From IMG/VR virus record IMGVR_UViG_2740892523_000006: a DNA stretch of 55,003 bases; one strand, given 5' to 3'. A program made the translations under genes and the position numbers. This stretch comes from a virus. Its lineage: Duplodnaviria; Heunggongvirae; Uroviricota; Caudoviricetes. Below, piece by piece: positions 798 to 29,210 of this stretch. Under the pieces are notes generated by a model, which saw nothing but the letters and a program-made list of their open reading frames with translations, was not told where the DNA came from and made no database searches. The first letter of the stretch is position 1. Each line of letters starts with the position of its first letter.

Positions 798-2161
798 TAC
801 CGATATGCTCCACTTAACCGACCACCATCACGGGCCTGCTGTTGCATAAAGTCCGCTGCCGCTTTTTTCCCGAGGTCATAAACCGCCTTCAGGGCAGCCG
901 GACCTATCTGCCCGTTCGTGCCATCGTTATTGATCTCGATGTTGTACTGCGGGGAAAACATCGCCATACCTGAACCCCCAATATCCGCCACAACCCCCAG
1001 CTTACCGTCAGCACCACGACGCAATGGCAGAATGGCTTCAGGTCCCGCTTCCCCCATCACACCCGCGCCTTTTGCAAAAGCAAAAAACGTCGGACGGTTA
1101 ACCACCGTGCCACTGTAACGACTCAAATCAGCAGACTGATAAATCCCCCCATTGGCATTCAGGGAAAGGCTGCTGAGATCAAATCCCAGTACACTGCCAA
1201 TCCCTTTTATCGATTTCATCATGGTTGCCTGCGCCAGGATTTTCGCCATATCTGACAGCACAGAAGAGGTGAAGGATTTGAAATTGAGTTTGCCGGTAGT
1301 GACAAAAGTTGCCAGGCCATTTCCCATGTTGCTGAAGGCTGACGAGAACACCTGTTCTGCTGTTTCTGCCGTATTATCTGCATCCACGGTAAAATCCTGA
1401 AATGCACGCAGGACTCCGTTTTTCCAGTTACCCTGTACAACTTCAAGCTGTTGCCAGTAACGGCGATTCTCATTCAGTTGTCGGTTCAGGCTCTCCGTCA
1501 GCGCCTGCTCGGCCTTTCTGTAGTCATCCGTGTTATATGTCCCTTTCTGCTCACTATCCCGCCTCAACTGCTCCAGCTGTTGCTGGTATTTCTGGCGAAG
1601 ACTCAGTTGTACCTGATATCGCTGTCGCTGCTGATCACCCATACCCACCGTGGCGATATCCAGGTCATGTTGCTGACGCTGAGCGCGCTCTTCTTCAGCC
1701 AGTTGACTGGTCAGCTGAATTGTTTTTTTCTTCAGCTCGTTGAGTGCCGTCTGTTTCTGAAGCTCCTGCTGTTTTACATCCAGCAGCGTCAGTGCCTGAA
1801 TCAGTTCATCTTTACGGGCCAGCACACTCTTTTCATCTGCCGTCAGTTTTTTCCCGTCCAGGTCGCTGATGCGCTGCTGCAGAGCCAGAAGCTGTTTACG
1901 CGCTTCTGTCATCCTTTCCGTGGCAATGCCTGCTGACTGTCTGGCAGCAGCAATCTGTCCTTCCACCTGTGCCTGTTGCTGACTGTACTGCAGCAATAAC
2001 CGGGTGGCCTCATCATTACGGGTTTCGCGTGTTTTTTTCTTACCGGATGCCAGGGCTTTCTCGTAACGTTCATTTTCACGTTGTATCGCCGCATCCCTGA
2101 CAGCCTGATCGGCGTACTGCATGGCATTAATACGCGCTATTTCACGCTGATTATAGCGCGG
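797..2161 (-). pseudogene. H: Lambdoid tail tape measure protein H, C-terminal fragment (gene interrupted by Mu-like prophage)
   Basis: ORF 797-2287; C-terminus INNDGTNGQIGPAALKAVYD matches recalled lambda gpH C-terminus; its first ~45 codons read through the Mu-like right-end repeats. Confidence 0.75.
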
Positions 2162-2240
2162 CGATTTTTTTGATACCGATTTGCATTTCATTTGATACCG
2201 CTGAAAAACGCCGATACGCAACTTATTTGATACTAAATCG
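2162..2240. repeat. Mu-like right-end terminal repeats (putative transposase binding sites)
   Basis: TTTGATACCG at 2169-2178 and 2191-2200, related TTTGATACTA at ~2226; closely spaced as for Mu R1-R3. Confidence 0.55.
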
Positions 2241-2279
2241 GCGCTTTTCTTTTGAGTTTTAGAATGAGTTTTTAAGCGC

Positions 2280-3017
2280 TCATTCACTCTCTTTCAAACC
2301 AGTTTTAACTGTTTGTGGTTTTGGGTAAGGCTGGACTTTGAATAGCTTTGTGTTGAGGCGTTTTCTGGCCCTCTTGTTCAGAAACCGGATGTAACGAAAC
2401 TGTCGGAACTTATGAACACTGGCTCTGTCAATATTAGCCCTCAGATGTTCACCTCGTTGTCCGCCTCGTTTAATGGCATTCCTGCAAATCTCGTGATACC
2501 ACTCGCCATCAAGTTCATAGAATATTGATTCATGGCTGCCTACATAATCAAAATTGCTTGCCTGATACACGACACCAAGACAGCCACAACGCTCATCTGC
2601 AAACGACTGAACCCACTGTACCTGCGGATAAAGCTGCCTGATTAGCTTGAGCGCGTAACTGATTGCCCTTGATTCGGAGTTTCTCGGCATACAGTCATGC
2701 AGCCATAGCCGGTTAAGCTCCATATATTCTCGGTTCTGCGTACCCGTTACGACGCGTGCACCACTGTTTGGGTTAAGGGCGTAACCCCATTGCATTACGC
2801 CAACAAGTTCCCGTTCTGAAAATATGCCCAGATGAAGGTAGGAGTTATTTACGAAACGGTGGCTGTAATGTTTATTGACGATGACCAGTCTGGCCAGCCA
2901 GCAACTTATTGTCTCAACCCGCAACTCACGGGAGCCATAACCAACGATATTGTCGTTATAGCGAATAAGTTCAGGCGTGCTGATGATTCGGGATGTGACT
3001 TGCTTTCTGTTCCCCAC
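2280..3017 (-). CDS. mom: Mom-like DNA modification protein
   Basis: 245-aa ORF immediately downstream of and overlapping a Com-like zinc-finger gene, ~120 bp from prophage right end, as in Mu; sequence identity to Mom not verified. Confidence 0.6.
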
Positions 3018-3216
3018 GACAGGATTTCCTTGTGTATGTGGGGTGCTCTGTGGCGCTCGGAGATGTGATTTGATTGAGGGTTTTACAGCGCGGACATTTT
3101 ACTTCCAGATAACTGAAACTGGCCCGTGCCAGTAGCTTATTGCAGTGTCGGCACCGTATGTTTCGATACATGACCGCATAACCTCCTGCTTTGTTGTTGA
3201 TGCCTTTCTCATGCAA
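2971..3216 (-). CDS. com: Com-like zinc-finger translational regulator of mom
   Basis: [10 protein letters not shown]...EVKCPRCKT...EHPT matches recalled Mu Com CxxC...CxxC pattern; TTG start at 3216 or ATG at 3171; overlaps mom start. Confidence 0.7.
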
Positions 3217-3218
3217 TC

Positions 3219-3235
3219 GATCGACAAAAACGATC
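3219..3235. promoter_or_regulatory. Paired GATC (Dam) sites upstream of com/mom
   Basis: GATC at 3219-3222 and 3232-3235 just upstream of com start; Mu mom promoter is controlled by Dam methylation of clustered GATC sites. Confidence 0.4.
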
Positions 3236-3582
3236 GATTCGATTTGTTTAATTGATACAACAAATAGATTGAAAAGTCATCAACAATGATTCAGGGAGGT
3301 GATTATTTACTTAAAGAAAACGAAGAGTTAGGTGGTGAAAACGATCATAAAATGATCATTTTATTGACTTTTTATACAGTGAAGGTAGGATCACGCGTAT
3401 ATGTAGTATGTTTCAAATCAACAGGATACTACATAAAAGTGAAACCCAGCATAGCTGGAACTATGCTGGGTCAATCTGTAAAAACTTGCATCAATGCTTT
3501 ACTTCGAGCTCGTGGCGTATCCTATGATATTCCCCGGTCTCCTGTAAAGCAGAGATGCATAAAAAGGAGATCTTTATCATGG

Positions 3583-3750
3583 ATGAAAGAGCCTGTTTGC
3601 CCTGCCTGTAAGACTCCCTTACAGCTCATCTATCGCCGTTCTCGATCTCAAAATGGCAAGACATACAAACCCAAAAATGCTTCCTGTTTCAGGATGCTGA
3701 TATGTCCTGCCTGTTCTCCCAGGAGGGAAAATACACAAAACGTGCATTAA
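3583..3750 (+). CDS. Possible small zinc-ribbon protein (CPxC...CPxC)
   Basis: AAGGAG at 3564-3569 ~13 nt before ATG 3583; MKEPVCPACKT...ICPACSP; lies inside a longer 154-aa ORF of doubtful coding quality. Confidence 0.25.
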   Translation: MKEPVCPACKTPLQLIYRRSRSQNGKTYKPKNASCFRMLICPACSPRRENTQNVH

Positions 3751-3788
3751 CAAACTCACCCGGCAGGGAAACCTGCCGGTCGGTATTG

Positions 3789-4034
3789 TTACATCATAGT
3801 ACCGTCAGTTCCGGGCTGAACCGGCTCTGGTTGCTCTACGGGTTGAGGATCATTTTCCGTGCTGTTTTCAGCCGGAGAACGGCCAACCATTCGGGCCAGC
3901 ACTTCATCAACATATGCGTCGATTTGTGCCTCAAAATCCTTGCGAACCTGCGCCTTCAGCACGCGGTTCACTTCTTCAGAATAAAGTGCCTGTTTGACAA
4001 GCTCTTCAGTAACCGTGCCTTTAATCTCTGGCAT
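3789..4034 (-). CDS. Hypothetical protein (81 aa), downstream of esterase gene
   Basis: ORF in same orientation as esterase; acidic Pro-rich C-terminus; no family recognised. Confidence 0.4.
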   Translation of the reverse strand: MPEIKGTVTEELVKQALYSEEVNRVLKAQVRKDFEAQIDAYVDEVLARMVGRSPAENSTENDPQPVEQPEPVQPGTDGTMM

Positions 4035-4069
4035 GAATATTCTCCTTTTGCAGGTATATTGCCCCGTTA

Positions 4070-4252
4070 TCAGAGCGGGGTCGGGTCGTTTGGGGATGAC
4101 GGTGCCTGTGCTGTTTTACTGAGTTTTTCAGCTGCCGCATCATCAATTTTACGGCGAATATAATTTCTGATGACCTTATAACCACCGCTCACCAGATATA
4201 ACGCACTGACCACAGCGCAGAAATAAAGCAGCATTGTATGAACGAATGTCAT
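4070..4252 (-). CDS. Hypothetical small membrane protein (60 aa)
   Basis: N-terminal hydrophobic stretch LLYFCAVVSALYLVSGG then charged tail; same strand as esterase. Confidence 0.4.
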   Translation of the reverse strand: MTFVHTMLLYFCAVVSALYLVSGGYKVIRNYIRRKIDDAAAEKLSKTAQAPSSPNDPTPL

Positions 4253-4364
4253 ATAACCTTACCTTTGATATTGACTACATAATTCGTTATCGGGTAAAAA
4301 CATCGAAGCGACTGATAACCACTCCTTCGGGAGTATTTTTATTTTCCTTTATGGGTTAGGTAGC

Positions 4365-4400
4365 TCCCGCCAGCCATATCATGACCGGCGGGATTTTTTT
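4365..4400 (+). terminator. Candidate intrinsic terminator facing plus strand, abutting esterase stop
   Basis: CCCGCC...GGCGGG stem followed by ATTTTTTTATT on plus strand (4366-4403). Confidence 0.35.
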
Positions 4401-6438
4401 ATTCTGTTACCGCTTTTTTCACTTCCACCACAATGCTGTCAATCAGCACCGGGTAAGTTGCATTTTTTGTGATATCCGTTACGCGGAGTTTGTCCACCGG
4501 GAAAGTTCCTACTGGTGACTGCGTCAGGGTAAACGCGGCACCATCCTGACCATCAATAACCGGAATAACCTGAAGGCTGTTATTTCCTGCAAAACGGAAG
4601 GCCAGCGTATGCCATTCATTATCAAATGCACCAAAGGTTCCCAGTTTCTGGTTATTTGTTGCCACTTTTGCATTGTGGTACATCACATTCAGGTCTTTTG
4701 CGTCTGTCTGGATGTAGAACGATGCCAGCAGATTATTCCCTGCATCCCCTGTCAGGGTGACACCCTGCGGCAGAGAGGAAACCGGCCAGTAAAGCCCCAT
4801 GACATACTGGTTTGCCACCAGGTCGCCAGGTACTTTAAAACGACAACTGATTAAACCACCATTTTTCAGCAGTTCAGCACCAGTACCGGCATCATGATCC
4901 AGATACCAAGATGATTTACCTGTTTCCTTGGTCAGTTTCATTGCCTTACCACCTGTGCCTCCTGCATCACTGATAATTTCAGCTTTACCGCCAGCCGGCT
5001 CCCAGCCCTGGGCTTTCAGATTTCCTTCTGACTCACTGACACGATAAGACAGCAGTGTTGTGGTTACTGCTTCAGTTTCTGAAGGTGACGGCACTGGTGC
5101 TTCAGTTTCAGAAGATGGAACATCGGCTTTTACTGTGGTTCGCCCCGCATGAGTCAGAACTGCCGTGGCCAGACGGTCGGAAATAATCCCACGACGTGCC
5201 CATGAACTGAAATGGCTGGCCCGGTCCGCAGATGTCCAGGTGGCGGCACTGTTACGCCACGTTGAGCCGTAATAACCAATGGATTCAATATCCGGGTCTT
5301 CTGCCGGATTGTTGGTGGGTACATTCGCGTCATTTTCATCTGTCATTAATGGAACGAAATGAATGTTTTTATCTGTTTTGTTTTTGTAGCCGCCATAGAT
5401 TGCCTGGTATGCCGGTTCATTTTTCTGTTTCCAGAAATACGTGGTATCGCCACAAATCCACGGAACGCCAGCAGCACTGCCACCGGTACACTGTTCCGCC
5501 TGTTCAGCCAGGTCTGCGCGGAATTTTTCCACCATCGCCAGAAACAGCGCGGAATGCTCCGTCGGCTTCGCATCAATATCAAACTCGCCCTGCATCCACA
5601 CCACAGCAAGCAGGCGGTTTTTCGGGTTCTTCGCCAGTGCCGCTTTTGTCCGGCTGATTAAGTCCTTATACAGCGGCTTATCCACACCCCAGCGGGCTGA
5701 GTCCTCTGAAGCACCCGTGCTGTCACTGTACGTGCCGTCAGCACCCGCCGTGAATGCAGAACCACCACGGCAGCAGGGAACCAGCAGAATCCCCGCATCT
5801 GCCGGAATAAACGGCAGCAGTTTTTTGGCAATGTGAAGCCCCTGACCCACGGTGCCATATTGCCCTTTAGCCACATCCGCTTTCGGGTGATTTTTTCCAC
5901 TCATATCCTGCACATCATGCAGACAGTGGTCGGCCAGAATGATGTCGTTATACTGACAGGCTTTACCTCCCGGCGTGACTGTACTGCGACGGGCTAACTG
6001 CATAATACGCGGTTCGGGGCGGTCATATGTCTCCGGCAGTGGCAGACCTTCACCGTAAGCCATACCGTTTGACTGACCAGCAAGAACCACCACGTAATAC
6101 CAGGAAGGGGAGCTGGAAGCAGTTTCATTTCCTGACGGACGGGTATGTGTTTCAGCATTATCCCAGTCTGACGGTTCAGCAGTACCGGCAACATCAGCAC
6201 TTAACGGAATGACCGCACCAATACCCGCTCCGGTAATTTCCACACTCGGATCACCGGATACTGGCCTTACCCACAGGCAATCCCGTGTATTAAAACTGAT
6301 GAGACAGTCAGCAAATGTCATTCCTCCTTTTGTTTCGGCCGGAGGAAAGGGAGCCTCAAGAAATGCCGCTGTACCACCGGAAACTTTAACAGTAAAGTTT
6401 CCGGGCATTGATGATAGTTGAACCCATTTGGACGTCAT
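4399..6438 (-). CDS. SASA/SGNH-family carbohydrate O-acetylesterase with C-terminal lectin-like domain (NanS-p-like cargo gene)
   Basis: 679 aa; VVVLAGQSNGMAYGEG matches the GQSN esterase motif; SETEAPVPSPSETEAV linker; beta-rich C-terminal ~230 aa; no signal peptide. Confidence 0.65.
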   Translation of the reverse strand: MTSKWVQLSSMPGNFTVKVSGGTAAFLEAPFPPAETKGGMTFADCLISFNTRDCLWVRPVSGDPSVEITGAGIGAVIPLSADVAGTAEPSDWDNAETHTRPSGNETASSSPSWYYVVVLAGQSNGMAYGEGLPLPETYDRPEPRIMQLARRSTVTPGGKACQYNDIILADHCLHDVQDMSGKNHPKADVAKGQYGTVGQGLHIAKKLLPFIPADAGILLVPCCRGGSAFTAGADGTYSDSTGASEDSARWGVDKPLYKDLISRTKAALAKNPKNRLLAVVWMQGEFDIDAKPTEHSALFLAMVEKFRADLAEQAEQCTGGSAAGVPWICGDTTYFWKQKNEPAYQAIYGGYKNKTDKNIHFVPLMTDENDANVPTNNPAEDPDIESIGYYGSTWRNSAATWTSADRASHFSSWARRGIISDRLATAVLTHAGRTTVKADVPSSETEAPVPSPSETEAVTTTLLSYRVSESEGNLKAQGWEPAGGKAEIISDAGGTGGKAMKLTKETGKSSWYLDHDAGTGAELLKNGGLISCRFKVPGDLVANQYVMGLYWPVSSLPQGVTLTGDAGNNLLASFYIQTDAKDLNVMYHNAKVATNNQKLGTFGAFDNEWHTLAFRFAGNNSLQVIPVIDGQDGAAFTLTQSPVGTFPVDKLRVTDITKNATYPVLIDSIVVEVKKAVTE

Positions 6439-6537
6439 AATAATCAGCCTGTTCCTGAATAAACTGAATTATCATATCCACAGACCGATAAACGCCATTT
6501 TGCGTTAATTCAGTAAAGGCCCAACAAAGGGAGCGTC

Positions 6538-7098
6538 TTATTTTTCCGAAACGCTCGCAGGATAATAACGATAAAGGGTTGAAAGGCCGATATCAAAAAT
6601 AAGTGCCACCTGTCTTCGACTGACACCCCCGGCCAGTAAACGCCCGACCTGCTCGTATTGTTCCTGCGTGAGACGACGGGGTCTGCCGCCGGTTCGTCCC
6701 CTTTCACGGGCAGCTGCAAGACCAGCCCGTGTCCGTTCGACAATTAATTCACGCTCCATTTCTGCCAGCGCACCCATTATGTGAAAAAAGAAGCGCCCCA
6801 TGGGGGTTGACGTATCAATGTTGTCAGTAAGACTACGAAAATTTATCCCCTGTTGCTGTAATTCATCTGTCAGCGCAACAAGGTGGCGCATACTGCGCCC
6901 CAGCCTGTCCAGTTTCCAGACCATCAGTGTGTCACCGGGTTTTAGTTTCTTCAGTGCCCGCTTCAGTCCCGGCCGCTGTGTCGTTTTACCACTCATTTTA
7001 TCTTCAAAAATCTGCTCACATCCTGCACATTCCAGCGCATTTCTTTGTAAACCTGTGTTCTGGTCATTTGTTGATACGCGTATATAGCCAATCAGCAT
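6538..7098 (-). CDS. gin: Gin/Pin-family serine DNA invertase
   Basis: 186 aa, MLIGYIRVSTNDQNTGLQ...GINFRSLTDNIDTST...C-terminal HTH; resolvase/invertase N-terminal serine signature; adjacent to invertible segment. Confidence 0.9.
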   Translation of the reverse strand: MLIGYIRVSTNDQNTGLQRNALECAGCEQIFEDKMSGKTTQRPGLKRALKKLKPGDTLMVWKLDRLGRSMRHLVALTDELQQQGINFRSLTDNIDTSTPMGRFFFHIMGALAEMERELIVERTRAGLAAARERGRTGGRPRRLTQEQYEQVGRLLAGGVSRRQVALIFDIGLSTLYRYYPASVSEK

Positions 7099-7154
7099 GT
7101 ATTTACCTTCCTTAAAAAGAGGTGGAAAGGCCTTTTAAAGCAGATATACGGCAT

Positions 7155-7185
7155 CCCTGAAACCTCGGTTTACGGGATACTGTAA
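7155..7185. repeat. gix-like inversion crossover site (gin-proximal)
   Basis: AACCTCGGTTTACGGGATAC at 7161-7180 is an inverted copy (18/20) of 8526-8545 and resembles recalled Mu gix core AAACCTCGGTTTAC. Confidence 0.7.
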
Positions 7186-7523
7186 ACAGGGCCGCGAATG
7201 CCCTGCCATCGAACGGAGCGGCTGTTGCAGCGAATAAACTCGCCACTCCAAGAAATATTAATGGTGTCCCATTTGACGGAACGCAGGATATAAATATTAC
7301 ATCGGGGATGACGCAGTCTGTGGCTGACTCACGTTATGTTCAAAGCATTCGAAGAGGTTCAAGGTCAACGATTGGAATGCAATATAATATTTTTGAGGTT
7401 CCTGACGGATGCGTACTTACAGGGCTTGATGTCGCTGGTGATGGTAATGCAACGGTAACCGCATATTATCGACCTGTTCAGTTTCTGATAGATGGTTCGT
7501 GGAAAACAGCTTCCAGCGCATAA
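7161..7523 (+). other. Silent alternative tail-fibre C-terminal cassette (Sv-prime), no own start codon
   Basis: Frame open from 7161; translation NLGLRDTVNRAANALPSNGAAVAANKLATPRNINGVPFDGT... parallels S residues 194-321; would be fused to S constant part after inversion. Confidence 0.65.
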
Positions 7524-7602
7524 AAGTGCAGTAGTTCAAAAAACAGATTATCTGAATAAATATATGATGATTTTGTCTTTTCAACAAAAACAAGGTGAAA
7601 TA

Positions 7603-8124
7603 ATGGAGCTTATTAACGTAAAACGATATTACCCGGAACACAAACCCTATGGTGAGGATGTTCAGTATTTCCAGAGTGAGGACGGAAGGGATTTTTATGA
7701 ATCTATCCCGCTTTTCACAAAGAAATACAAACTCTGTATTTCGCCTGTAACGGGTATTATCTGCTCTGTTGCTGAAGATGTCTCTGCTTTATATCCGGCA
7801 GGTTTTACTGTTGTTGAAGTGGACGAACTGCCGGAAGGTGTGAATATTGACGGTAACTGGCAGTTTTCTGATGGCCTGATATCAAAGGTGCCGGTAAACT
7901 GGAAGACGGTTGCTGAAAAGCGCCGCTCATCGCTGCTCCAGGAAGCCAACGAAACTGTGGATGACTGGAAAACGGAATTAAAACTGGACATGATTAGCGA
8001 TGAAAATAAATTACAGCTGACGCGCTGGATGGCGTATATCCGACAGCTTAAAGAAATGCACTTTAATGATATTGCCAGTGAGGGGCATTACCAGGCGATT
8101 CCCTGGCCGGAAAAACCGGAATAA
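7603..8124 (+). CDS. Tail fibre assembly protein (U-prime-like), inside invertible segment
   Basis: Starts MELINVKRYYPEHKP after AAGGTG; C-terminus QLTRWMAYIRQL...AIPWPEKPE typical of tail fibre assembly chaperones. Confidence 0.7.
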   Translation: MELINVKRYYPEHKPYGEDVQYFQSEDGRDFYESIPLFTKKYKLCISPVTGIICSVAEDVSALYPAGFTVVEVDELPEGVNIDGNWQFSDGLISKVPVNWKTVAEKRRSSLLQEANETVDDWKTELKLDMISDENKLQLTRWMAYIRQLKEMHFNDIASEGHYQAIPWPEKPE

Positions 8125-8158
8125 TTCAGAGGGTGCATTCAGCACCCTTTTCTGTGGT

Positions 8159-9070
8159 TTACACTGAACTTACCGTTCTCCAGGCATTATTAATATAAAT
8201 CTGAACCGGGCGATAATAGACCCCACCGATATTGTCCGCAGACCGGGAGCCGGTTTCCTGCACGTTAATTCCGGAAAGCATACAACCGGAAGGTGCGCTG
8301 TAATTCCATGACATTTCATTGCCTCCGGGTGAATGATAGCTCTGTGCTCCAAGCTGAACATTCTGTACATACCGGCCATCTGCGGTTGACTGCGTCATTC
8401 CTGACGTGATGTTGATATCCAGCGTTCCGTCAAAAGGAACACCATTAATATTTCTTGGGGTGGCGAGTCTGTTTGCTGCCACGGCGGTTCCACCCGATGG
8501 CAGGGCATCAGCAGCCTTATTTACCGTTTCCCGTAAACCGACGTTATCGATAAAAGCGCCTTTATCCGGAATGTCTGCGCCGTTCTGCTCCCTGCGCAGG
8601 TAACGGTTATCACCTTCGCTTTTGCTGTAAACATCCAGATTATTACGGGCGGTTCCCGCATTCTCCAGGTCGGCAAGGTTCTGATCCTTCGCCAGAGCAT
8701 TAACGTCACCGGGACCAAGACTGTTTTTTGTGGCAAGCGCCCCAAGACCAAGATAACCACGGGCAAGACGCTGGGCTTCCGCACCGGCATCAGCAATTTC
8801 TTTCAGGTTGTTTTTCCGGGAAAAGGCATTCGCAGCGATAATGGCTTTAATGGACAGCGTAAGCTGGTTTAACTGCGCCTTATCCGGCTGAATACTGGCT
8901 TCAGCCAGAATATTCAGCAGTTCGGCCTGGAGAATATTCAGCCAGTCCTGACCAATCCAGCTGATACCTTTTTGTCCGTCACCTTCGGTAAACCAGGTGG
9001 TGGTATTACTCTGCGCCGGTGCCAGCGCAGGCATATTCGCCACGCCGGAATTATTATCAACATGGAACAT
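8159..9070 (-). CDS. Tail fibre protein (Mu S-like; constant N-part plus invertible C-terminal part Sv)
   Basis: ATG at 9070 overlaps upstream stop (TAATG); C-terminal 127 aa lie within invertible segment and are homologous to Sv-prime cassette. Confidence 0.75.
   Translation of the reverse strand: MFHVDNNSGVANMPALAPAQSNTTTWFTEGDGQKGISWIGQDWLNILQAELLNILAEASIQPDKAQLNQLTLSIKAIIAANAFSRKNNLKEIADAGAEAQRLARGYLGLGALATKNSLGPGDVNALAKDQNLADLENAGTARNNLDVYSKSEGDNRYLRREQNGADIPDKGAFIDNVGLRETVNKAADALPSGGTAVAANRLATPRNINGVPFDGTLDINITSGMTQSTADGRYVQNVQLGAQSYHSPGGNEMSWNYSAPSGCMLSGINVQETGSRSADNIGGVYYRPVQIYINNAWRTVSSV
8522..8550. repeat. gix-like inversion crossover site inside tail fibre gene
   Basis: GTTTCCCGTAAACCGACGTT at 8526-8545, inverted repeat of 7161-7180; coincides with codons ~193-200 (DNVGLRET) where the two cassettes begin to align. 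Confidence 0.7.
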
Positions 9071-9630
9071 TAAATATTCTCCTCTTCGTGACTGTTTGCA
9101 TACACGTAAATAAACGTCTGCCATGCAGGCTTATAACGGTTCAGAATACATTCCAGCGCACCGCCTTCATAAATACGCAGCGGCGTGAGAATATCATCCA
9201 GCACATTCATATTCCGGTAGCCGGTTTCACTGTTAATCGTGACAATACTGACCCACTGTGAATCCGGTGATGGCTGAATATCTATTTCATAACCAAACTC
9301 TGCCGCAAACCGGATATAAAATTCACGGTTAAGAGAGGGTTTCATCCGGTATTTATTCCCGGCATAACGCTGACGCTCCTGAATGGTTGCGCCGGTCATA
9401 TCACATTCCGGTAACCCCAGATAACGCTCCCAGTCTTCCAGCAGCAGACGGGATGAATCAGGAAAACGTTCTGCCAGCATCTGGTTACCGGTCCAGGAAA
9501 CACGCTCCGTGGAATGACTGAGGCCCAGGCACAAAGCCGCAAGAACGGATGACGGCCGCTTATCCCATGCCAGCCCGTCAGGCAGCAACTGCAACAGGGC
9601 GCGCTGATGCGGGGTCAGGGTTACAGCCAT
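9070..9630 (-). CDS. Tail/baseplate protein (Mu gp48 position)
   Basis: 186 aa between baseplate J-like gene and tail fibre; assigned by synteny. Confidence 0.55.
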   Translation of the reverse strand: MAVTLTPHQRALLQLLPDGLAWDKRPSSVLAALCLGLSHSTERVSWTGNQMLAERFPDSSRLLLEDWERYLGLPECDMTGATIQERQRYAGNKYRMKPSLNREFYIRFAAEFGYEIDIQPSPDSQWVSIVTINSETGYRNMNVLDDILTPLRIYEGGALECILNRYKPAWQTFIYVYANSHEEENI

Positions 9631-10706
9631 GTGATTTCCCCCACGGTCAGCAACTCTGTATCTCCGGCCATCACGGACTTCAGCGGGCTGCGAACTTCAA
9701 AATCCTCCAGTCCTTTCACCCCTGCAACAGCCCGCCAGAATGATGAAGGCAATACAAGTCCACCCGGCCGCGATTCGTTATAAAGCAGGTCTGTTAATGC
9801 CTGTTTTACGGCAGCCTGATTTTCCGGCGTTTTGGGTACAATCCTGATCTCAAACGCCACCGGCTTATTGGTCAGCTTAAACACGCTGATTGTCGGCCCA
9901 AGTGGCTGACCAACGGGCTGGCCCGTCGCCGGATCATCATGACTGCGGATATAATCCGCCACCCGCTTCACATCACCTTCTCCGGGGAAAATGTCAGGGT
10001 TATTATCCTGAACAAAAGTCACACCAACACTACCCGCCTCAGGCCATTCAGGCTTACACCATGCCCGCGTCACGCCCGGTACTTCCCGTGCCCAGCGTTC
10101 AAAATCATACTGTGTTCCCCCTGATGGCGGGTTCTGTACCCGGAATACCAGCCTGGACAGCAACTCCGGCACCGTTTCCACATCCGCACCACCGGTGAGT
10201 CCCGTGCCGGTGACCGTGGCTGTCTGGTTGATGCCCGCCTGTGGCGTGATAAAGGACAGGCGGGTTCCGGTCGGGGTATTTCCAGCGCGCCCCGCACTTT
10301 CCGCCTCCACATTAACATTCAGTGTTCCGGCTTTTCCGGTCGCAGAGCCGGTGATGCGGTACACAACACCATCGCTTCGCTGAAGGAGTACGCCTTCCGT
10401 GATCCCTGCATCCGTGGTCAGCATCAGTTGTACCGGTCCGTCAGCGCGGGAAGCCGGTTTACGGATGACACCCCAGAATGCGCAGTGTTTCAGGAGTTCG
10501 GCTTCATCAGCTTCTGTCGGAATTATCTGCCGGGAGATCCAGGCCAGATGTTCATGCTCCTGTGCTGACAGACCCGCCAGTGCATACGCAATGGCATTCA
10601 GGGTGGTTTCATTCACGCCCGGCTGCGAACCGGGCAGGCGCTGGCTGATATCCTGTTGTGTCTGTGTGATCAGTTGCGCCAGTGGTAAGGGCTGATAAGG
10701 CATCAT
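9621..10706 (-). CDS. Baseplate J-like protein (Mu gp47 position)
   Basis: 361 aa; position and size in baseplate module; family not verified. Confidence 0.6.
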   Translation of the reverse strand: MMPYQPLPLAQLITQTQQDISQRLPGSQPGVNETTLNAIAYALAGLSAQEHEHLAWISRQIIPTEADEAELLKHCAFWGVIRKPASRADGPVQLMLTTDAGITEGVLLQRSDGVVYRITGSATGKAGTLNVNVEAESAGRAGNTPTGTRLSFITPQAGINQTATVTGTGLTGGADVETVPELLSRLVFRVQNPPSGGTQYDFERWAREVPGVTRAWCKPEWPEAGSVGVTFVQDNNPDIFPGEGDVKRVADYIRSHDDPATGQPVGQPLGPTISVFKLTNKPVAFEIRIVPKTPENQAAVKQALTDLLYNESRPGGLVLPSSFWRAVAGVKGLEDFEVRSPLKSVMAGDTELLTVGEITWL

Positions 10707-11140
10707 TCCCCCTTCATATCAGCATAAAAAATCATCGGATGTCTGCTTCCGTCCGGCAGGGTGATTTTCACGGAAAGCGAAAGGCGAGCATGCCCCACAC
10801 GCATGGCATGACATACCACGGATGTGGCAGCACCGCTTTTATGCAGCCACGCCAGCGCTTCATCAGCATAGGCCTGTGCACGGCTGACCACGGAGGACAG
10901 CGTCTTTTCACGGCTTAACAGCCAGAGACGGGAGCCAACGGGGCGCTCCCGGAAACTGTCTCCCCACCATCCCCGACGGTCACGGGTGCCGTCAGGGATT
11001 TCATCGGAATCCAGCGCCCGCCTGTCCGTAAACAGTGAAATAATGACCGCAGTCAGCAGGCTGTTATCCGTCAGAAGATCTGCGCCGTTCAGTTGCAGGG
11101 AACCGCAACCCTGATCCCAGACGACAGCAATATCAGCCAT
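10703..11140 (-). CDS. Baseplate protein (Mu gp46 position)
   Basis: ATG at 11140 (MADIAVVWDQGCGSLQL...) overlaps upstream stop; ORF track 5-prime extension is probably out-of-frame overlap. Confidence 0.55.
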   Translation of the reverse strand: MADIAVVWDQGCGSLQLNGADLLTDNSLLTAVIISLFTDRRALDSDEIPDGTRDRRGWWGDSFRERPVGSRLWLLSREKTLSSVVSRAQAYADEALAWLHKSGAATSVVCHAMRVGHARLSLSVKITLPDGSRHPMIFYADMKGE

Positions 11141-11747
11141 TCTCTGGTCCTCCCGTTTTGCTGCCTTCACCGTTATCGTGATGCACATGACCTGAATAGG
11201 TGATCCCGGCAATAACCGCTTCGGACATCGTGAACGTCCCCTGTGATCTTCCGGTGCCGTCAATGGACACATTGCCTTTGACATGCAGGTTCTTATCCAC
11301 TGTGACATTACCGGTAAAGTGAGCCTCCGGTGTATCCACCTGAACACCTTCATCGGCGTAAATCTCCAGCGTCTTACAGGTCACAATGATCCGGCCGTTC
11401 TTTGTCAGACGTATGCGGTGCCCCTCATGGTGATACACGCCGGTATCTCCGGCGGTAAGTCCGGTCGGGCGACTGCGGCGGTCTTCCACCACAAGCACCA
11501 CGGCCTGATCCCGTTGTCCGCCAGCACAGGCCAGAAAAACTTCCGCACCAGGCAGGGGGACGCTGATTTGCCCGTACTGCTGGGGGCGTTCAACGTCATC
11601 AAAGGTTTCACCATCCATACCGGTGATTTGCACATTCTGGATTTTCAGCGTGTCCGTTGTGCCGGTCAGTACACCACGCCCGAACAGCAGACGAACACCC
11701 CGCATCACGGGGGCCAGAAGGCGGCTGATGACTTCGTCATTCATCAT
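11133..11747 (-). CDS. Baseplate assembly/spike protein (Mu gp45 position)
   Basis: 204 aa in baseplate module; synteny. Confidence 0.55.
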   Translation of the reverse strand: MMNDEVISRLLAPVMRGVRLLFGRGVLTGTTDTLKIQNVQITGMDGETFDDVERPQQYGQISVPLPGAEVFLACAGGQRDQAVVLVVEDRRSRPTGLTAGDTGVYHHEGHRIRLTKNGRIIVTCKTLEIYADEGVQVDTPEAHFTGNVTVDKNLHVKGNVSIDGTGRSQGTFTMSEAVIAGITYSGHVHHDNGEGSKTGGPENG

Positions 11748-12861
11748 TGAATTTAATCCCCTGTTTTTTCATCTGTGCCCGCACGAAGGCGTCCACGTCA
11801 CCCGCATTTCCGCTTCCGCTGTTTCCCGGCTCTGCCGGAACAATAAAGCCGTCACGGGGTGCCAGAATCAGACGGGTGGTTTCGCCGTGATTTGCATCCA
11901 GCGAAAACTCCACCTGACAGACAAGAAGATCACGCTCTTCCACTCCGGTACGGGGAGCCGTGACAGCCGTCAGCAGGTTGATATCCCACAACTGGCCGTT
12001 CTCCCGAAACCAGTGCCGCACGGTGGCTGTCAGGCGCACAGAGCGGGCAACCGCCCGGCGCATTTCCCGGACAGCCCTCTGGCGTGCACCGTCTGCATCA
12101 ACAGCATGATCCGCCAGCACAATTTTCGGTCTGTAACGGTGGATGGCACTGTCTGTCACCGTACCAACTGGTGCGGCCAGCGTTCCGGCTGTCAGTGCAT
12201 CCCCGGCATGACCACCACCACGCCCGTGCCCCCGTACACGGTATTCACTGTGGCGCAGACGGTGATCCACGTTGTGATCCAAATCCAGCAGATTTTCGCC
12301 CAGCGTCAGCGTGTCACCACGCTGACTGCCGGCCTGAGTGAAAACCAGTTCACCGGCGGCATTACTGGTTACCAGGACGCCTCTGTGTCTCGCGGCCCGT
12401 GTCAGCGCATCTGCCACGGTTTCTGAATTTTCCAGTGTGAAGGTGGAAAAGGGCCGGGCTGCCGTTGCATCATTTACCTGCCAGCGCACCGTGACCCCGA
12501 ACGGAGCACACAAATCTGAAGCAATGTGCTCCAGCGTGCGGTTCCTCCACTGGCTGCCCGGATGAATGGCTGAACAGTCCACCAGGTCACCGGTTTTATC
12601 CCGTCCGCTGAGCGTGATCTGAAAACGCGTGGCGCTGATGCGCTGCCGGACCTGATCCAGCCAGCCAGTGATCACAGGCTGACCGTCAATGCGCAATTCC
12701 AGAGACTGACCGGCACGGACGGATGACGGAAGGCGTACACCGGGCATCATTACCCCCAGTTCAAAGGAGCCCGCCAGATGTTCAAGAGAGCGACGAACAC
12801 TCACCGTCAGCCAGCCGGAAAAAATCTCACCGCCCAGATACAGTTCAACCCTGCTGCTCAC
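11737..12861 (-). CDS. Baseplate hub/tail protein (Mu P/gp44 position)
   Basis: 374 aa downstream of DNA circularisation gene; synteny. Confidence 0.6.
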   Translation of the reverse strand: MSSRVELYLGGEIFSGWLTVSVRRSLEHLAGSFELGVMMPGVRLPSSVRAGQSLELRIDGQPVITGWLDQVRQRISATRFQITLSGRDKTGDLVDCSAIHPGSQWRNRTLEHIASDLCAPFGVTVRWQVNDATAARPFSTFTLENSETVADALTRAARHRGVLVTSNAAGELVFTQAGSQRGDTLTLGENLLDLDHNVDHRLRHSEYRVRGHGRGGGHAGDALTAGTLAAPVGTVTDSAIHRYRPKIVLADHAVDADGARQRAVREMRRAVARSVRLTATVRHWFRENGQLWDINLLTAVTAPRTGVEERDLLVCQVEFSLDANHGETTRLILAPRDGFIVPAEPGNSGSGNAGDVDAFVRAQMKKQGIKFNDE

Positions 12862-14215
12862 TAATCACCTCCACTGAATGGCCTCCGGGAATGAACAGCG
12901 GATCAATAATACCGTTACGGCGCACAAAACGTTGCCAGCCGGTACTGTTCCCGGTGGCACGGTACAGGGTCACCAGTGCAGGCTCGGTGGTACGTACAGT
13001 CACTACTGTTGCACCGGGTAGCTGAACTCCCCGTGTATTCAGATCCTCTGTCAGTGCCAGTCTGGCATCACGAAGCGTCAGCGCCGTGGCGGTATACCCC
13101 TGCCCGGACAGTGTCATCACCTGCCGTTCGAGCGCTTCGCTTAAGTCACGGTTAATGCGCTGAAGATCAACTGAACTTTCCAGCCAGACAGGCCAGGTAC
13201 GGTGGGCTGCGTCACTGTCCGGCAGGGTTTCCTGACTGAGAACCTGATCCAGCAGTTTTCCCACGGTCTGTGCCTGGGCCACCACGGCAGCACTCTGCAT
13301 TACCGCCCGTATCAGACGAATATTCTTTTGTGCTGCCGGTGTCAGACCGATGAGAGTCTGCGGATTATCCTGCTCATCCAGCACGTAACGCAGGGAAGAT
13401 AATGTCCTGTACAGTTGTGGCATTCCCTGAGAGACGGCGGATGTCGTCCGGCCGATACTGCCACCGGGCCGGGTATTCAGGCCTCCTGAAGACAGTGACG
13501 GCAGCGATGGCAGGGTGATCAGGGCACTGAAAAGCCCCGCAAAAGATGAGGCCATGCGGGAAGGTGCTGTCAGTAATGCCGTGGCATTCCCTTTCAGCGC
13601 CGTGAACGTGGCAGTAAAGGCACTGATATCCTGTACAATCCCCATGCCGGAAACGGCATTTTCCAGGGCGGACACCTTATCGCTGATGGTTTCGGTCATT
13701 GCCTGGACATCGTGCATTCCGTCAGAAATCACCGTCCAGCCCGCTTCCAGGGTTTCAAAAACCTTCCCGAGCGCGGTGGTACTCTTCTGCTCCAGAATGG
13801 CGGCCGTGTCCTGTGTGACAGCAGGTGCGGTATCATCACTTACCGGCGTGACATTAATGGTGAACTCAACCACGCCCTGTTCAGCAGCGTTATAACGACT
13901 TTCAAAGCTGTTTATCAGCACATTTAACGTGCCGTAATCCGGGTGAAGCAGCTCCCCGGCACCGGGAGCACGAAGGGCATCACGCAGACGATTTCGCTGT
14001 GTCTGAACATCATCCCCCATCACAAGTACACTGAACGTAAATTCAGCCAGTTTAGGTCCCAGATCGTCTGCACCACCGGTTTCCCGTAACGGATATTCCC
14101 GACGGACAATGTTTCGCCCGCCACGTTCGCGCTGCTCACGCCAGACGAGGAACGGCACACCACGGAACGCACCACGACCGTCACCAGAGGCCATAATTCC
14201 CTCCGTTCCAGACAT
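12845..14215 (-). CDS. DNA circularisation protein N-like (Mu gp43 position)
   Basis: 456 aa directly after tape measure; synteny. Confidence 0.6.
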   Translation of the reverse strand: MSGTEGIMASGDGRGAFRGVPFLVWREQRERGGRNIVRREYPLRETGGADDLGPKLAEFTFSVLVMGDDVQTQRNRLRDALRAPGAGELLHPDYGTLNVLINSFESRYNAAEQGVVEFTINVTPVSDDTAPAVTQDTAAILEQKSTTALGKVFETLEAGWTVISDGMHDVQAMTETISDKVSALENAVSGMGIVQDISAFTATFTALKGNATALLTAPSRMASSFAGLFSALITLPSLPSLSSGGLNTRPGGSIGRTTSAVSQGMPQLYRTLSSLRYVLDEQDNPQTLIGLTPAAQKNIRLIRAVMQSAAVVAQAQTVGKLLDQVLSQETLPDSDAAHRTWPVWLESSVDLQRINRDLSEALERQVMTLSGQGYTATALTLRDARLALTEDLNTRGVQLPGATVVTVRTTEPALVTLYRATGNSTGWQRFVRRNGIIDPLFIPGGHSVEVISEQQG

Positions 14216-16256: not shown

Positions 16257-16258
16257 AC

Positions 16259-16441
16259 TTACTGCTTCGTTCTGATGATTTTTTCTGTCTGTCGGCAGTG
16301 CCGGTAAAGTTGCGACAGGGGGAGGTTAAGCGCCCATTCCGGACCGCTTTTTGTCACCATCCCCAGGATAATTGCCGCTTCTTCAATCTGATCCCGACAC
16401 TGCGCCTGATCGCCCCCGGTCAGCTGCCAGCTTTCCGGCAA
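16259..16441 (-). CDS. Small ORF overlapping end of tail chaperone gene (possible frameshift extension)
   Basis: 60-aa ORF in +1 frame relative to 16383-16877, overlap 59 nt, immediately upstream of tape measure. Confidence 0.35.
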   Translation of the reverse strand: MPESWQLTGGDQAQCRDQIEEAAIILGMVTKSGPEWALNLPLSQLYRHCRQTEKIIRTKQ

Positions 16442-16877
16442 GCGCGGTATCCAGCAGGCTGACCGCTGCCATCAGGCGGGAGAGATCGCGCTCGCTTAAC
16501 TGTCCAATCTGACGGGGTGACAACGGACCTTCAATGTCTCCCACTGCGGCAATCTGACGGCGCAGCAGTGCAACACCGCGTAACGACGGAGACGCTATCA
16601 GCATCGGGCCATTGTTTGTCTCCACCACGCGCTCGGCTTCTGCTTCTGCGTCAATACTGTCTTTCGCTGTCAGTTCCCGGAACGTGACACGATATTCACG
16701 GGTCTCACCAAACGGCAGACCATCAAGCAGATCCACATATCCCTTTGCCAGTTGCTCTGTCAGCCCGGCAGTGCGTGGATCAGCCCCCTCAAGTGCTTCC
16801 CGGATTGCCTCCATCACGGCTGCCTCGGAAACTGCCGTTTTTTTCTTACGTGTGGTCATTTTATTTTTCCTGATCAC
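16383..16877 (-). CDS. Tail assembly chaperone (Mu gp41 position)
   Basis: 164 aa between tube and tape measure; synteny. Confidence 0.55.
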   Translation of the reverse strand: MIRKNKMTTRKKKTAVSEAAVMEAIREALEGADPRTAGLTEQLAKGYVDLLDGLPFGETREYRVTFRELTAKDSIDAEAEAERVVETNNGPMLIASPSLRGVALLRRQIAAVGDIEGPLSPRQIGQLSERDLSRLMAAVSLLDTALAGKLAADRGRSGAVSGSD

Positions 16878-17239
16878 TGAACACGGGTACTGGAGGCGCT
16901 GGCGAACTTCACGGAGATCTCCCCGCCACCGTCAAGCGAGGCCGGTTCACTGCTCCAGGCCTTCGTCATCATGTGGACTTCGCCGGTATCCGCCACAAAC
17001 TCGATAGTGACCGCAGTCCAGTTGTTGATTTCATCGGCGGCTGGTGAACCTTCTCCGCCTGCCGGAAATTTGCAGTCCAGCGTCGCTTCACGTGGTTTCT
17101 GGCGGTAACCATAGACTTTCGCGCCTTTCACCACTTCACGTTCAAAACCAGACGGAGAAAATGTAGCTCCCTCAAGCGTCTCGTATTCCTGACCGTTCAC
17201 ACGGATAGTGGCCGTACCCTGATACTGTTTTCCGCTCAT
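16874..17239 (-). CDS. Tail tube protein (Mu M-like)
   Basis: 121 aa immediately after sheath gene. Confidence 0.7.
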   Translation of the reverse strand: MSGKQYQGTATIRVNGQEYETLEGATFSPSGFEREVVKGAKVYGYRQKPREATLDCKFPAGGEGSPAADEINNWTAVTIEFVADTGEVHMMTKAWSSEPASLDGGGEISVKFASASSTRVQ

Positions 17240-17247
17240 GCCTTACC

Positions 17248-18750: not shown

Positions 18751-18992
18751 TGCGGTTTCTCCTTATCGGATGCCGGTTGGGCGACCGGTTTTTCTGTCGC
18801 AGTCGTTGCATCCGCAGATACAGCCGGAGCCTCTTCAGCGGCTTTTTCAGCCTGAATGACATCGCCGTCATCAAGACGCCGACACCAGAACGGCGTAAAG
18901 GGCTTTTCCTCCCCCTCCTGTGCCAGCGGGCGCATTGTGTCGGGATCACGAATCAGGCGTCCCGGCGCGGGTTTGATAAAGATGGTTTTCAT
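18747..18992 (-). CDS. Hypothetical structural protein (Mu gp38 position)
   Basis: 81 aa; synteny. Confidence 0.45.
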   Translation of the reverse strand: MKTIFIKPAPGRLIRDPDTMRPLAQEGEEKPFTPFWCRRLDDGDVIQAEKAAEEAPAVSADATTATEKPVAQPASDKEKPQ

Positions 18993-20358: not shown

Positions 20359-20401
20359 ATTTGCCCTCCGCAGGGGCCGGGCCGTAAGCCCGGCTCACCG
20401 T

Positions 20402-22473: not shown

Positions 22474-22649
22474 TCCGGCAGCATAAGCCGGGAATTTTCA
22501 GGGCGGGTTTTGCGGGATTTCAGGAAGTGCTTCCAGGGGAAAAATACAAAGGCGCTTCACGCAGATTTTAAAGCCCGTTAAATACAGGTTAGAAAATCAC
22601 GACACGCGCCTGAAGGGGGTAAGGTAATGCATTTGCATACCTTAAACAA

Positions 22650-23123: not shown

Positions 23124-23244
23124 ATTGCCTCCGCATAAAGGATGAATATAAAATAAACAGGCGGTCAGTGTACGCTTAACTGGTAAAGTCGGTGCCTGCC
23201 TCCGGGTGGATCATGTATGCGGGTTCAACCCCCGCCACTGACCG

Positions 23245-28394: not shown

Positions 28395-28396
28395 CG

Positions 28397-29200: not shown

Positions 29201-29210
29201 ACCTTTTTCC

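Follow-up and report, generated by a model that had tools for sequence, protein, structure and literature searches.

The window analysed here, that is, the whole stretch of 55,003 nucleotides, carries at the right end of an Sp18-type Mu-like transposable prophage of E. coli what we consider, with a probability of roughly 0.85, to be a functional com-mom operon under double gating of the Mu type. The identity of the locus as com and mom is virtually certain. The DNA modification made by Mom protects phage DNA against many restriction enzymes, and the expression of Mom is gated twice because the protein is toxic. In the preliminary description of this DNA, the locus had been interpreted as a Mu-type com/mom anti-restriction module, and the protein families, the conserved residues, the overlap of the two genes, the translational hairpin and the homology of the upstream GATC sites support this interpretation. 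The module is already known: it is an intact Mu-type com-mom operon, annotated in public genomes and ordinary except for its more compact control region. The features of the locus are listed in Table 1.

Table 1. Features of the com-mom operon, its upstream region and the related prophage elements (positions in the window).
Feature	Position	Strand	Basis
mom (245-aa Mom enzyme, GNAT fold)	2280..3017	minus	GTG start at 3017-3015; Pfam, PHROG, Mu alignment, PDB
com (66-aa CCCC zinc-ribbon translational activator)	2971..3171	minus	Pfam, PHROG, Mu Com alignment, RefSeq start
Shine-Dalgarno AGGAGG of com	3182..3187	minus	Read from sequence
Predicted Com RNA operator GAGCGCC-ACA-GAGCACC(CC)	3040..3058	minus	Core CC-ACA-GAG at 3053-3046; SELEX motif
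Translation-inhibition hairpin of mom	3012..3043	minus	MFE and centroid folds
Putative weak com-mom promoter	3197..3227	minus	Inference only: -35 TTGTCG (3227-3222), 19-bp spacer, -10 CATCAA (3202-3197), TSS near 3190
GATC pair, predicted Dam-sensitive OxyR half-site	3215..3239	.	GATC at 3219-3222 and 3232-3235, in perfect dyad
Upstream AT-rich dyad TCGATTTGTT / AACAAATAGA with conserved ATCAATTAAA element	3239..3287	.	Inverted repeat
Further OxyR-like half-sites	3242-3256, 3251-3265, 3273-3287	.	Consensus matches
C-like late activator	30448-30873		Pfam Mor family 109 bits, PHROG 532
Right end of Mu-like prophage	2152..2279	minus	Repeated TTGATACCG/TTGATACT motifs

The mom and com genes

A profile search with the 245-aa protein, which the preliminary description had proposed as a check on its Mom-like gene, gave a match to the Pfam family Mom (PF25680) of 258.9 bits against a cut-off of 27.1, extending over profile positions 1-202 of 202. 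The protein also matched PHROG 1384 (281 bits) and the structure PDB 8bv8 (E 4.5e-124), and its alignment with Mu Mom is ungapped, with 79% identity. Mutagenesis of Mu Mom has established R111, S124, D149 and R151 as essential or important for catalysis and dimerisation, together with H58, Y59, Y159, W48 and W181 (PMC13219725). When numbered in the present protein (Mu numbering minus 8), W48, H58, Y59, R111, S124, D149, R151, Y159 and W181 of Mu correspond to W40, H50, Y51, R103, S116, D141, R143, Y151 and W173, and all of them are identical. The HTH-like insertion required for activity (approximately residues 175-209 in Mu) is aligned free of gaps and is mostly identical. Judged from its sequence, the gene encodes a full-length Mom; the family match and the retention of all the listed residues clearly dispose of the concern that similarity to Mom or the catalytic residues might be lacking.

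Mom is a GNAT enzyme that depends on Gly-tRNA and produces N6-carbamoylmethyl-adenine (PMC13219725). The protein of this prophage is presumably active in the same manner, and as in Mu it would transfer glycine from Gly-tRNA(Gly) to the adenine N6 in double-stranded DNA, the product then rearranging to N6-carbamoylmethyl-adenine.

The gene for Com is directly upstream of mom, and its end (2971) extends beyond the start of mom (3017), so that the two overlap by 47 nt on the minus strand. The protein matched the Pfam family Zn_ribbon_Com (PF10122) at 46.1 bits, where the cut-off is 22.9, as well as PHROG 13819 ('gpCom'), and its identity with Mu Com is 47%, with C7, C10, C27 and C30 all aligned to cysteines of Mu. 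The Com-like zinc-finger reading frame overlapping the start of mom, as previously noted from the sequence, is thus a genuine com gene. The program-made reading frame spans 2971..3216 and encodes 81 aa from a TTG codon, but translation most probably begins with the ATG at 3171, giving 66 aa. This ATG is located 10 nt after an AGGAGG sequence and is the start used in RefSeq, and the AGGAGG is kept in all the members of the clade except for one variant (AGAAGG).

The order and the place of the genes are those of Mu (Mup54/Mup55, NC_000929), where com-mom is likewise the last operon before the right end and the GTG of mom is located within com, with an overlap of 50 nt counted from the GTG. Both phages also have a gene for a late activator of the C family. 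The differences are that gin is adjacent to com in Mu and not in the present prophage, and that there is one activator of the Mor/C family here and two in Mu.

Probable translational gating of mom by Com

Control of mom translation through Com and a hairpin is highly probable from the sequence and its likeness to Mu. In the bicistronic mRNA, com would be translated freely while the GUG of mom would be sequestered in a CCCCAC/GUGGGG hairpin, and Com would open this hairpin by binding to CC-ACA-GAG just on its 5′ side. The preliminary description had suggested a search for a stem-loop sequestering the mom start, and such a structure was found in both the MFE and the centroid folds: the 5′ arm CCCCAC (3043-3038) pairs with the 3′ arm GUGGGG (3017-3012), which includes the GUG start, and the Shine-Dalgarno sequence AGGA (3030-3027) is located in the loop. 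In a model of the 251-nt transcript, the pairing probability was 1.0 for the mom GUG and 0.51 for the com AUG. The equivalent hairpin of Mu is CCCAC...GUGGG, and in both phages a CC-N3-GAG Com operator is followed by a hairpin of this type in which the start codon is paired. Here the stem has 6 bp and the loop 20 nt; in Mu the stem has 5-8 bp and the loop 7-11 nt.

The z-score of the 91-nt hairpin segment was only -0.5, and the support for the hairpin therefore comes from its homology with Mu and not from thermodynamic excess. When 12 com-containing sequences (the window, Mu and 10 relatives) were folded separately, the MFE structure paired at least one candidate mom start codon or its Shine-Dalgarno sequence in all 12, often with an entirely different sequence; the stems were near-invariant within alignable clades and unalignable between clades. 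Conservation of the operator and the hairpin may also reflect coding constraint on the C-terminus of Com (E-H-P), with which it is confounded.

The RNA motif selected by Com in SELEX experiments is NGAGNNCC(N)2-3GAGNNCCNN (PMC6483171). Its bipartite form GAGNNCC-N3-GAGNNCC (GAGNNCCNNNGAGNNCC) has a single match on both strands of the 55 kb, where 0.12 are expected, and this match, at 3042-3058 on the minus strand, is located 25 nt upstream of the mom GUG. The predicted operator is homologous to AAUGCCUGCGAGCAUCC of Mu. Its small stem GCGC/GCAC is weak, with one C·A mismatch and only 2 bp in the MFE fold, whereas the corresponding stem pairs fully in Mu (AUGC/GCAU) and in the relative L003 (GCAC/GUGC).

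The GATC pair upstream of com

Two GATC sites 13 bp apart had been noted upstream of com, and they are indeed present, at 47 and 60 nt from the com ATG (13 bp from start to start) and within a perfect 9-bp inverted repeat, AATCGATCG-N7-CGATCGATT. By chance statistics alone the pair is unremarkable. The window contains 196 GATC sites compared with 223 expected, which is not a significant difference, and six pairs at a distance of 13 bp or less; GATC-N9-GATC was seen once against 0.94 expected per window, and at least one was found in 63 of 100 shuffles. Since these statistics are not significant, the case for the pair has to be made from homology and conservation.

The 13-bp pair is also found upstream of com in Mu, Edwardsiella, Symbiopectobacterium, Apirhabdus, Pantoea and other relatives in the Enterobacteriaceae. 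When the Mu upstream region was anchored manually on the 13-bp pair (automatic alignment misplaced the GATC block), ATCGATCG-N7-CGATCGATT of the window corresponded to ATCGATCG-N8-GATCGATT of Mu, indicating homology to GATC2/GATC3 of Mu; in both phages GATC-N9-GATC has the same flanks (ATCGATCG...GATCGATT in Mu) and is preceded by ATCAATTAAA. Within the clade of the present prophage, the 25-bp dyad with the GATC pair is unchanged among 11 distinct variants of the upstream region, and the next 15 nt or so vary freely.

Mu has three GATC sites with spacings of 18 and 13 bp, and the one located 18 bp upstream of the pair is missing here; the 120 bp upstream of com contain only two. The nearest outgroups (L003, L050 and L051) have three sites spaced by 31 and 13 bp, and four more distant com-mom operons (L010, L011, L093 and L097) have no GATC upstream. 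The com-mom operons of the Mu family therefore differ in their arrangement of GATC sites, with no fewer than three types (18/13, 31/13 and pairs only), a natural series in which to dissect how OxyR reads Dam methylation.

These observations bear on the alternative that the com and mom genes are genuine while the GATC pair is a relic that plays no part in regulation in this lineage, the third GATC having been lost and the promoter rearranged, so that only the late activator and Com would exert control. That a GATC-N9-GATC is expected about once per window, that the distal GATC of Mu and the three nearest outgroups is absent, and that operons with no upstream GATC exist at all would fit such a relic; nevertheless, we regard it as improbable because the dyad is invariant next to a highly variable spacer, the pair recurs across genera, and the region is the top cluster of OxyR-consensus matches in the 55 kb, as described below.

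OxyR-like sites and the putative promoter region

The full-site OxyR consensus, ATAGnTnnnAnCTAT-N7-ATAGnTnnnAnCTAT, was scored as a crude, uncalibrated count out of 20. The score was 13/20 at 3220-3256 and 14/20 at 3251-3287, and the site of Mu itself reached 13/20 by the same scoring. Five positions in the window reached 13 or more, and four of them were located in the com upstream region. In local shuffles, the probability of a maximum of 14 or more was 0.0055, and four such positions were obtained in none of 2000. The ATCAATTAA element of the upstream dyad is common to Mu and the relative L007.

The design of the pair resembles that of the gtr promoter of P22, whose half-sites are bound by OxyR experimentally in a methylation-sensitive manner (PMC2909390). 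The gtr half-sites ATTGATCGGTAACAACGATCAATT and ATTGATCGCTTGTATCGATCAAAA follow the same design as the present pair, with GATC sites 13 bp apart, each pair within one OxyR dimer half-site; ATTGATCGGTAACAACGATCAATT and ATCGATCGTTTTTGTCGATCGATT of the window are near-identical in design. The promoter-proximal pair of gtr is located at -46 and -33, and the present pair would be at about -45 and -32 if the transcription start site (TSS) is placed near 3190. On the other hand, gtr has two pairs and three half-sites and shows ON/OFF phase variation, whereas a single pair is found here, upstream of unrelated genes and with a putative OxyR site and TSS.

From these similarities, we consider control by Dam and OxyR through the GATC pair to be likely. 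The pair at 3219/3232 would constitute one OxyR dimer half-site, which together with the AT-rich half-sites at 3242-3287 may bind OxyR in the unmethylated or hemimethylated state and thereby repress the operon, and full Dam methylation would release OxyR. Most likely the pair overlaps the -35 and the spacer of a weak promoter with its TSS near 3190, and this promoter presumably still needs the single C-like late activator of the prophage, a protein with 39% identity to Mu C and 27% to Mor.

The proposed -10 hexamer is TATCAT or TATCAA in the close relatives L032, L036 and L039. A scan for the sigma-70 consensus on the minus strand upstream of com found no promoter, and the proposed CATCAA is poor. 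The proximal GATC is located 47 nt from the com ATG here and 74 nt in Mu, that is, 27 bp closer, and a Mu C site (TTAT-N6-ATAA) is not visible between the GATC and com, where there are 27 bp less room than in Mu. Therefore, the Mu layout of OxyR site, C site and -35 cannot be copied one to one: a C site like that of Mu would not fit in, and the GATC pair is likely to overlap with the core promoter. In this comparison, the footprint coordinates of Mu were in part derived from the Mu sequence. Of the Mu methylation logic proposed in the preliminary description, the homology of the pair to the methylation-sensitive OxyR site of Mu thus stands, whereas the number of GATC sites (two, not three) and the C-site layout depart from it. 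No convincing motif was common to the region upstream of com and the upstream regions of lys, the Mor/C gene, I and the other late operons; hence the dependence on an activator draws no support from a shared late-operon sequence.

In a compact variant of the Mu arrangement, which we put forward only tentatively and consider rather unlikely, a single Dam-sensitive OxyR half-site would be located inside the core promoter (about -45 and -32, the geometry of the OFF state of P22 gtr) and not upstream of a C site. In that case OxyR would repress by occluding the promoter directly, activation might need no C site of the Mu type, and heritable ON/OFF heterogeneity of mom expression among induced cells could follow from the methylation of just two GATC sites.

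Alternatively, the dyad could be a methylation-sensitive element that acts not via OxyR but as the site of a phage factor such as the C-like activator, or through an effect of methylation on the binding of RNA polymerase at the -35 and the spacer. At Pmom of Mu, C binds in the region of about -28 to -50. With the TSS near 3190, the dyad would span about -28 to -50, the same place, and a perfect 9-bp inverted repeat is typical of a dimer site; moreover, methylation of the promoter-proximal GATC of P22 gtr affects promoter activity directly (PMC2909390). We nevertheless judge this alternative to be no more probable than a relic, because a scan for ATTTGTT-N10-AACAAAT found no similar dyad upstream of the other late operons of the prophage, and because the homology of the dyad is with the part of Mu bound by OxyR, not with the C site, and it resembles the OxyR half-sites of gtr.

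Prophage context and distribution

The stop codon of mom is 128 bp from the prophage end at 2152, in agreement with the position at a prophage right end given in the preliminary description. The TTGATACCG/TTGATACT motifs of the right end (2170-2178, 2192-2200 and 2227-2234) recur in inverted orientation at the left end, e.g. at 41077-41085, and identity with the same prophage inserted in a different gene of E2855 begins at 2152. The interrupted gene encodes a lambdoid tape-measure protein, which matches up to 2151, resumes at 41104 and is intact in other genomes; the insertion junction was absent from all the complete genomes searched. The target-site duplication is ambiguous, with TGAT duplicated and a 5-bp reading giving CTGAT versus ATGAT.

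Besides intact Mu A and B (Mu-transpos_C, MuB_C), the prophage has genes for GemA, a Mor-family protein, Gp27 and the Gin resolvase, and 3.3 kb of lambdoid-type cargo is located between gin and com. Sp18-type prophages occupy different sites in different strains (PMC7430833). With a length of 38.95 kb, the present one is comparable to the Sp18-type prophages such as Sp18 of O157 Sakai and Phi804-3 of FRIK804 (38.76-39.18 kb, at strain-specific sites; PMC7430833) and differs from them only in its insertion site inside the tape-measure gene. The intact Mu A and B and the differing insertion sites argue that the prophage is a live element. It is very improbable that com-mom is a silent remnant drifting in a defective prophage and never expressed, even though many EHEC prophages are defective (PMC2669165) and some copies in other genomes have tail genes annotated as frameshifted, because both reading frames are intact with all catalytic residues and zinc ligands kept, many genomes contain the sequence with 100% identity, the Mu A and B genes are present, the insertion sites are strain-specific with one seen only here, and Sp18 is rated intact (PMC2669165).

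Of 5,426 complete genomes, 233 contain the 1251-bp com-mom region at an identity of 90% or more, and in many the match is 100%; mom and Com are already annotated in the 233 complete E. coli genomes with this sequence. As a textbook anti-restriction module already labelled in hundreds of E. coli genomes, the operon has little importance beyond correct annotation. Nevertheless, Mu-like prophages of STEC carry an apparently active Mom, and this may have consequences for restriction barriers and for methylome calls made by sequencing in these pathogens.

The RefSeq names are 'protein mom' (WP_000528251) and 'Com family' (WP_001310452). The NCBIfam models gave no match for Mom or Com, and the PGAP names must therefore derive from other rule types. 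The name given to Com by PGAP, 'DNA-binding transcriptional regulator', clashes with its experimentally established function as an RNA-binding translational activator.

Identity of the com and mom genes

The feature is a known and already annotated com-mom operon of the Mu type. In a profile search, the product of the 245-aa minus-strand ORF matched the Pfam Mom family (PF25680) end to end with 258.9 bits, and the product of the small zinc-ribbon ORF that precedes mom on the same strand and overlaps its start matched Zn_ribbon_Com (PF10122) with 46.1 bits, confirming the preliminary description of a Com-like zinc-finger ORF overlapping a Mom-like gene. The PHROG labels agreed ('gpCom control of modification' and 'Mom-like DNA modification protein'). 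Window Mom and Mu Mom share 79% identity across 229 residues in an ungapped alignment, and window Mom matched the solved Mu Mom structure 8bv8 with an E value of 4.5e-124; window Com shares 47% identity with its Mu counterpart, and the four zinc-binding cysteines all align. The mechanical com ORF begins at TTG (3216), and the actual start is likely ATG at 3171, a codon preceded by AGGAGG and chosen as start in RefSeq. PGAP names the product of 2971-3171 'Com family DNA-binding transcriptional regulator', which conflicts with the experimental evidence that Mu Com is an RNA-binding translational activator (PMC6483171).

According to Silva et al. 2026 (PMC13219725), Mu Mom uses Gly-tRNA(Gly) as donor to attach glycine to the N6 position of adenine in dsDNA, after which rearrangement gives N6-carbamoylmethyl-dA. 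In the numbering of that report, which an alignment check showed to be that of the 241-aa Mu Mom annotation, R111, S124 and R151 are essential and an HTH-like insertion spanning residues ~175-209 is needed, with H58, Y59, Y159, W48 and W181 being important; D149A strongly lowers activity according to earlier alanine mutagenesis cited there. When the two proteins were aligned, every one of these residues had an identical counterpart in the window protein (W40, H50, Y51, R103, S116, D141, R143, Y151 and W173) and the insertion was present without gaps; therefore, the lack of Mom similarity or catalytic residues that had been named as counter-evidence was not found.

Coordinates of the com-mom region and the surrounding prophage
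Feature	Position	Strand	Remarks
mom	3017..2280	minus	245-aa ORF, GTG start
Predicted Com operator	3058-3042	minus	GAGCGCC-ACA-GAGCACC; SELEX motif match
Predicted mom inhibition hairpin	3043-3038 / 3017-3012	minus	CCCCAC/GUGGGG; SD AGGA in loop
GATC pair	3219, 3232		in perfect dyad AATCGATCG-N7-CGATCGATT
ORF154	3286-3750	plus	154 aa, divergent from com; RefSeq 'hypothetical protein', phrog_26524
Second GATC cluster	3338-3392		GATC at 3343, 3354, 3389; tandem repeat AAAACGATCAT/AAAATGATCAT and palindrome
Promoter-like TTGACT-16-TAGGAT	3364-3391	plus	overlaps second GATC cluster
Terminator-like hairpin in ORF154	3443-3472	minus	13-bp stem
Perfect 8-bp hairpin	3759-3780		CCGGCAGG-gaaa-CCTGCCGG; between convergent ORF154 and DUF826 genes
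Cargo in gin-com block	3789-6438		~2.65 kb; 679-aa SASA/DUF6645 esterase (NanS-p-like), DUF1378, DUF826
Mor/C-family activator	30448-30873	minus	between gemA and lysozyme gene; sole one in prophage
Mu-like prophage	2152..41103		38.95 kb, carries com-mom
Tape-measure 5' part	41091-42848		TMP_2
Tape-measure 3' part	797-2151		Tape_meas_lam_C

Predicted translational gate of mom

The Com target of Mu is a short hairpin with 5'-CC(N)2-3GAG-3', closely followed by a translation-inhibition hairpin that holds the mom GUG in its stem (PMC6483171). The bipartite SELEX motif GAGNNCC-N3-GAGNNCC has a single match in the 55 kb (0.12 expected), located on the correct strand 25 nt upstream of the mom GUG. 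The CCCCAC/GUGGGG hairpin lies directly downstream, and Mu has CCCAC...GUGGG at the equivalent place. Modelling of a 251-nt transcript gave the GUG a pairing probability of 1.0, so the stem-loop sequestering the mom start that the preliminary description suggested looking for is predicted here. The operator stem is AUGC/GCAU in Mu, GCAC/GUGC in Edwardsiella and GCGC/GCAC, with one C·A mismatch, in the window.

Twelve com-containing sequences were folded: those of the window, of Mu and of 10 relatives in other genera. Each MFE fold paired at least one candidate mom start codon or its SD, and several relatives pair via unrelated sequences (UCUCCGA/UCGGAGA in Symbiopectobacterium and Pantoea, CCUCCA/UGGAGG in Endobugula). 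The local folding energy was unexceptional (z = -0.5), and conservation of the operator and hairpin is partly a coding effect because both are embedded in com codons (E-H-P).

GATC sites and putative promoter upstream of com

Two GATC sites 13 bp apart lie upstream of com, as first noticed. The pair alone is statistically meaningless; the comparative evidence is strong. In Mu the arrangement is GATC-N14-GATC-N9-GATC, the final two sites falling within ATCGATCG...GATCGATT, and the window can be aligned with Mu and with loci of Edwardsiella, Symbiopectobacterium, Apirhabdus, Pantoea and gut Enterobacteriaceae if the 13-bp pair serves as anchor. Among 48 distinct com upstream sequences out of 100 further loci, most enterobacterial ones carried an 18/13 triplet, a 31/13 triplet (start-to-start spacings in bp) or one of two pairs, and more distant com-mom loci, the majority of them in marine bacteria or on uncultured viral contigs, had no GATC. 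The layouts upstream of Mu-family com are discrete (18/13 triplet, 31/13 triplet, 18-bp pair only, 13-bp pair only, or none), as seen on comparing the related loci L056, L063, L082, L084, L086, L090 and L099 with L003, L050 and L051, and their distribution appears clade-specific. The third GATC is missing from the window com upstream at either position (18 or 31 bp). The dyad is invariant in 11 distinct variants of the window's clade, and the next ~15 nt differ widely among them.

Support for an OxyR site in this region came from two indirect tests. When matches to ATAGnTnnnAnCTAT-N7-ATAGnTnnnAnCTAT were counted out of 20, four of the five window positions scoring at least 13 fell at 3220-3287, including the best one (14/20); the experimentally defined OxyR site of Mu scored 13/20 by the same count. 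In local 129-bp dinucleotide shuffles the maximum reached at least 14 in 0.55% of trials, and four positions of at least 13 never occurred. The P22 gtr half-sites ATTGATCGGTAACAACGATCAATT and ATTGATCGCTTGTATCGATCAAAA, which bind OxyR only if unmethylated (PMC2909390), are 13-bp-spaced GATC pairs, and ATCGATCGTTTTTGTCGATCGATT of the window is of almost the same design.

The proximal GATC is 47 nt from the com ATG, compared with 74 in Mu. Upstream of window com we found no counterpart of the Mu TTAT-N6-ATAA dyad, T-run and TAAGAT -10, and a consensus scan gave no promoter there. As the com-mom promoter we tentatively propose TTGTCG-19 bp-CATCAA (3227..3197), on the ground that close relatives have TATCAT or TATCAA where the -10 would lie; the GATCs would then fall near -45 and -32, comparable with -46 and -33 for GATC3 and GATC4 of gtr (PMC2909390). 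In the next clade out (loci L049-L051), a near-consensus TATACT or TATAGT occurs 7-9 nt past the proximal GATC. On either promoter reading, the pair would fall within the core promoter, not upstream of an activator site. Judged from sequence, this compact two-GATC control region, probably a variation on the Dam/OxyR designs of Mu and gtr, is the only mildly new part of the operon, and the proposed Mu logic is supported by the protein families, catalytic residues, gate hairpin and homologous GATC pair.

The prophage activator is 39% identical to Mu C versus 27% to Mor. Mu has two such activators acting in a Mor-then-C cascade, and with a single one the middle-to-late switch in this phage type may be simpler. 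Comparison with the prophage's other upstream regions found no shared candidate activator binding site.

Further upstream, ORF154 has a broken frame in several relatives of 97-99% identity and is missing in others. Its annotation may be wrong, since only the C-terminal CxxC...CxxC part (from ATG 3580, SD AAGGAG) is fully conserved. The second GATC cluster could be another Dam-sensitive promoter, and the hairpin at 3759-3780 looks like a bidirectional terminator.

Prophage context

The prophage, with Pfam matches to Mu A, Mu B, GemA, Mor/C-family activator, lysozyme, Gp27 and Gin, corresponds to the EHEC Sp18/Phi804-3 type, which is 38.76-39.18 kb long, rated intact and inserted at strain-specific sites (PMC2669165, PMC7430833). 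Intact homologues of the interrupted lambdoid tape-measure gene match the flank up to 2151 and again from 41104, and in strain E2855, where the same prophage end adjoins a DUF1367 gene, identity with the window starts at 2152. As mom stops 128 bp from this end (115 bp in Mu), its placement at the prophage right end was correct. The Mu-like prophage is nested in a lambdoid prophage, whose tail tape-measure gene it splits, and is flanked by a TGAT repeat (CTGAT versus ATGAT as 5 bp).

None of the 5,426 complete E. coli genomes searched has this junction. The 1251-bp com-mom region is 100% identical in many complete STEC genomes and reaches 90% identity or more in 233 of the 5,426, in which com is annotated as 'Com family DNA-binding transcriptional regulator' and mom as 'protein mom' or 'Mom family adenine methylcarbamoylation protein'.

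In Mu and Edwardsiella L003 gin adjoins com, whereas in the window a 3.3-kb block separates gin (6538-7098) from com. SASA/DUF6645 esterase, DUF1378 and DUF826 genes are the usual cargo of lambdoid/Stx phage late regions; here such cargo is borne by a Mu-like phage.
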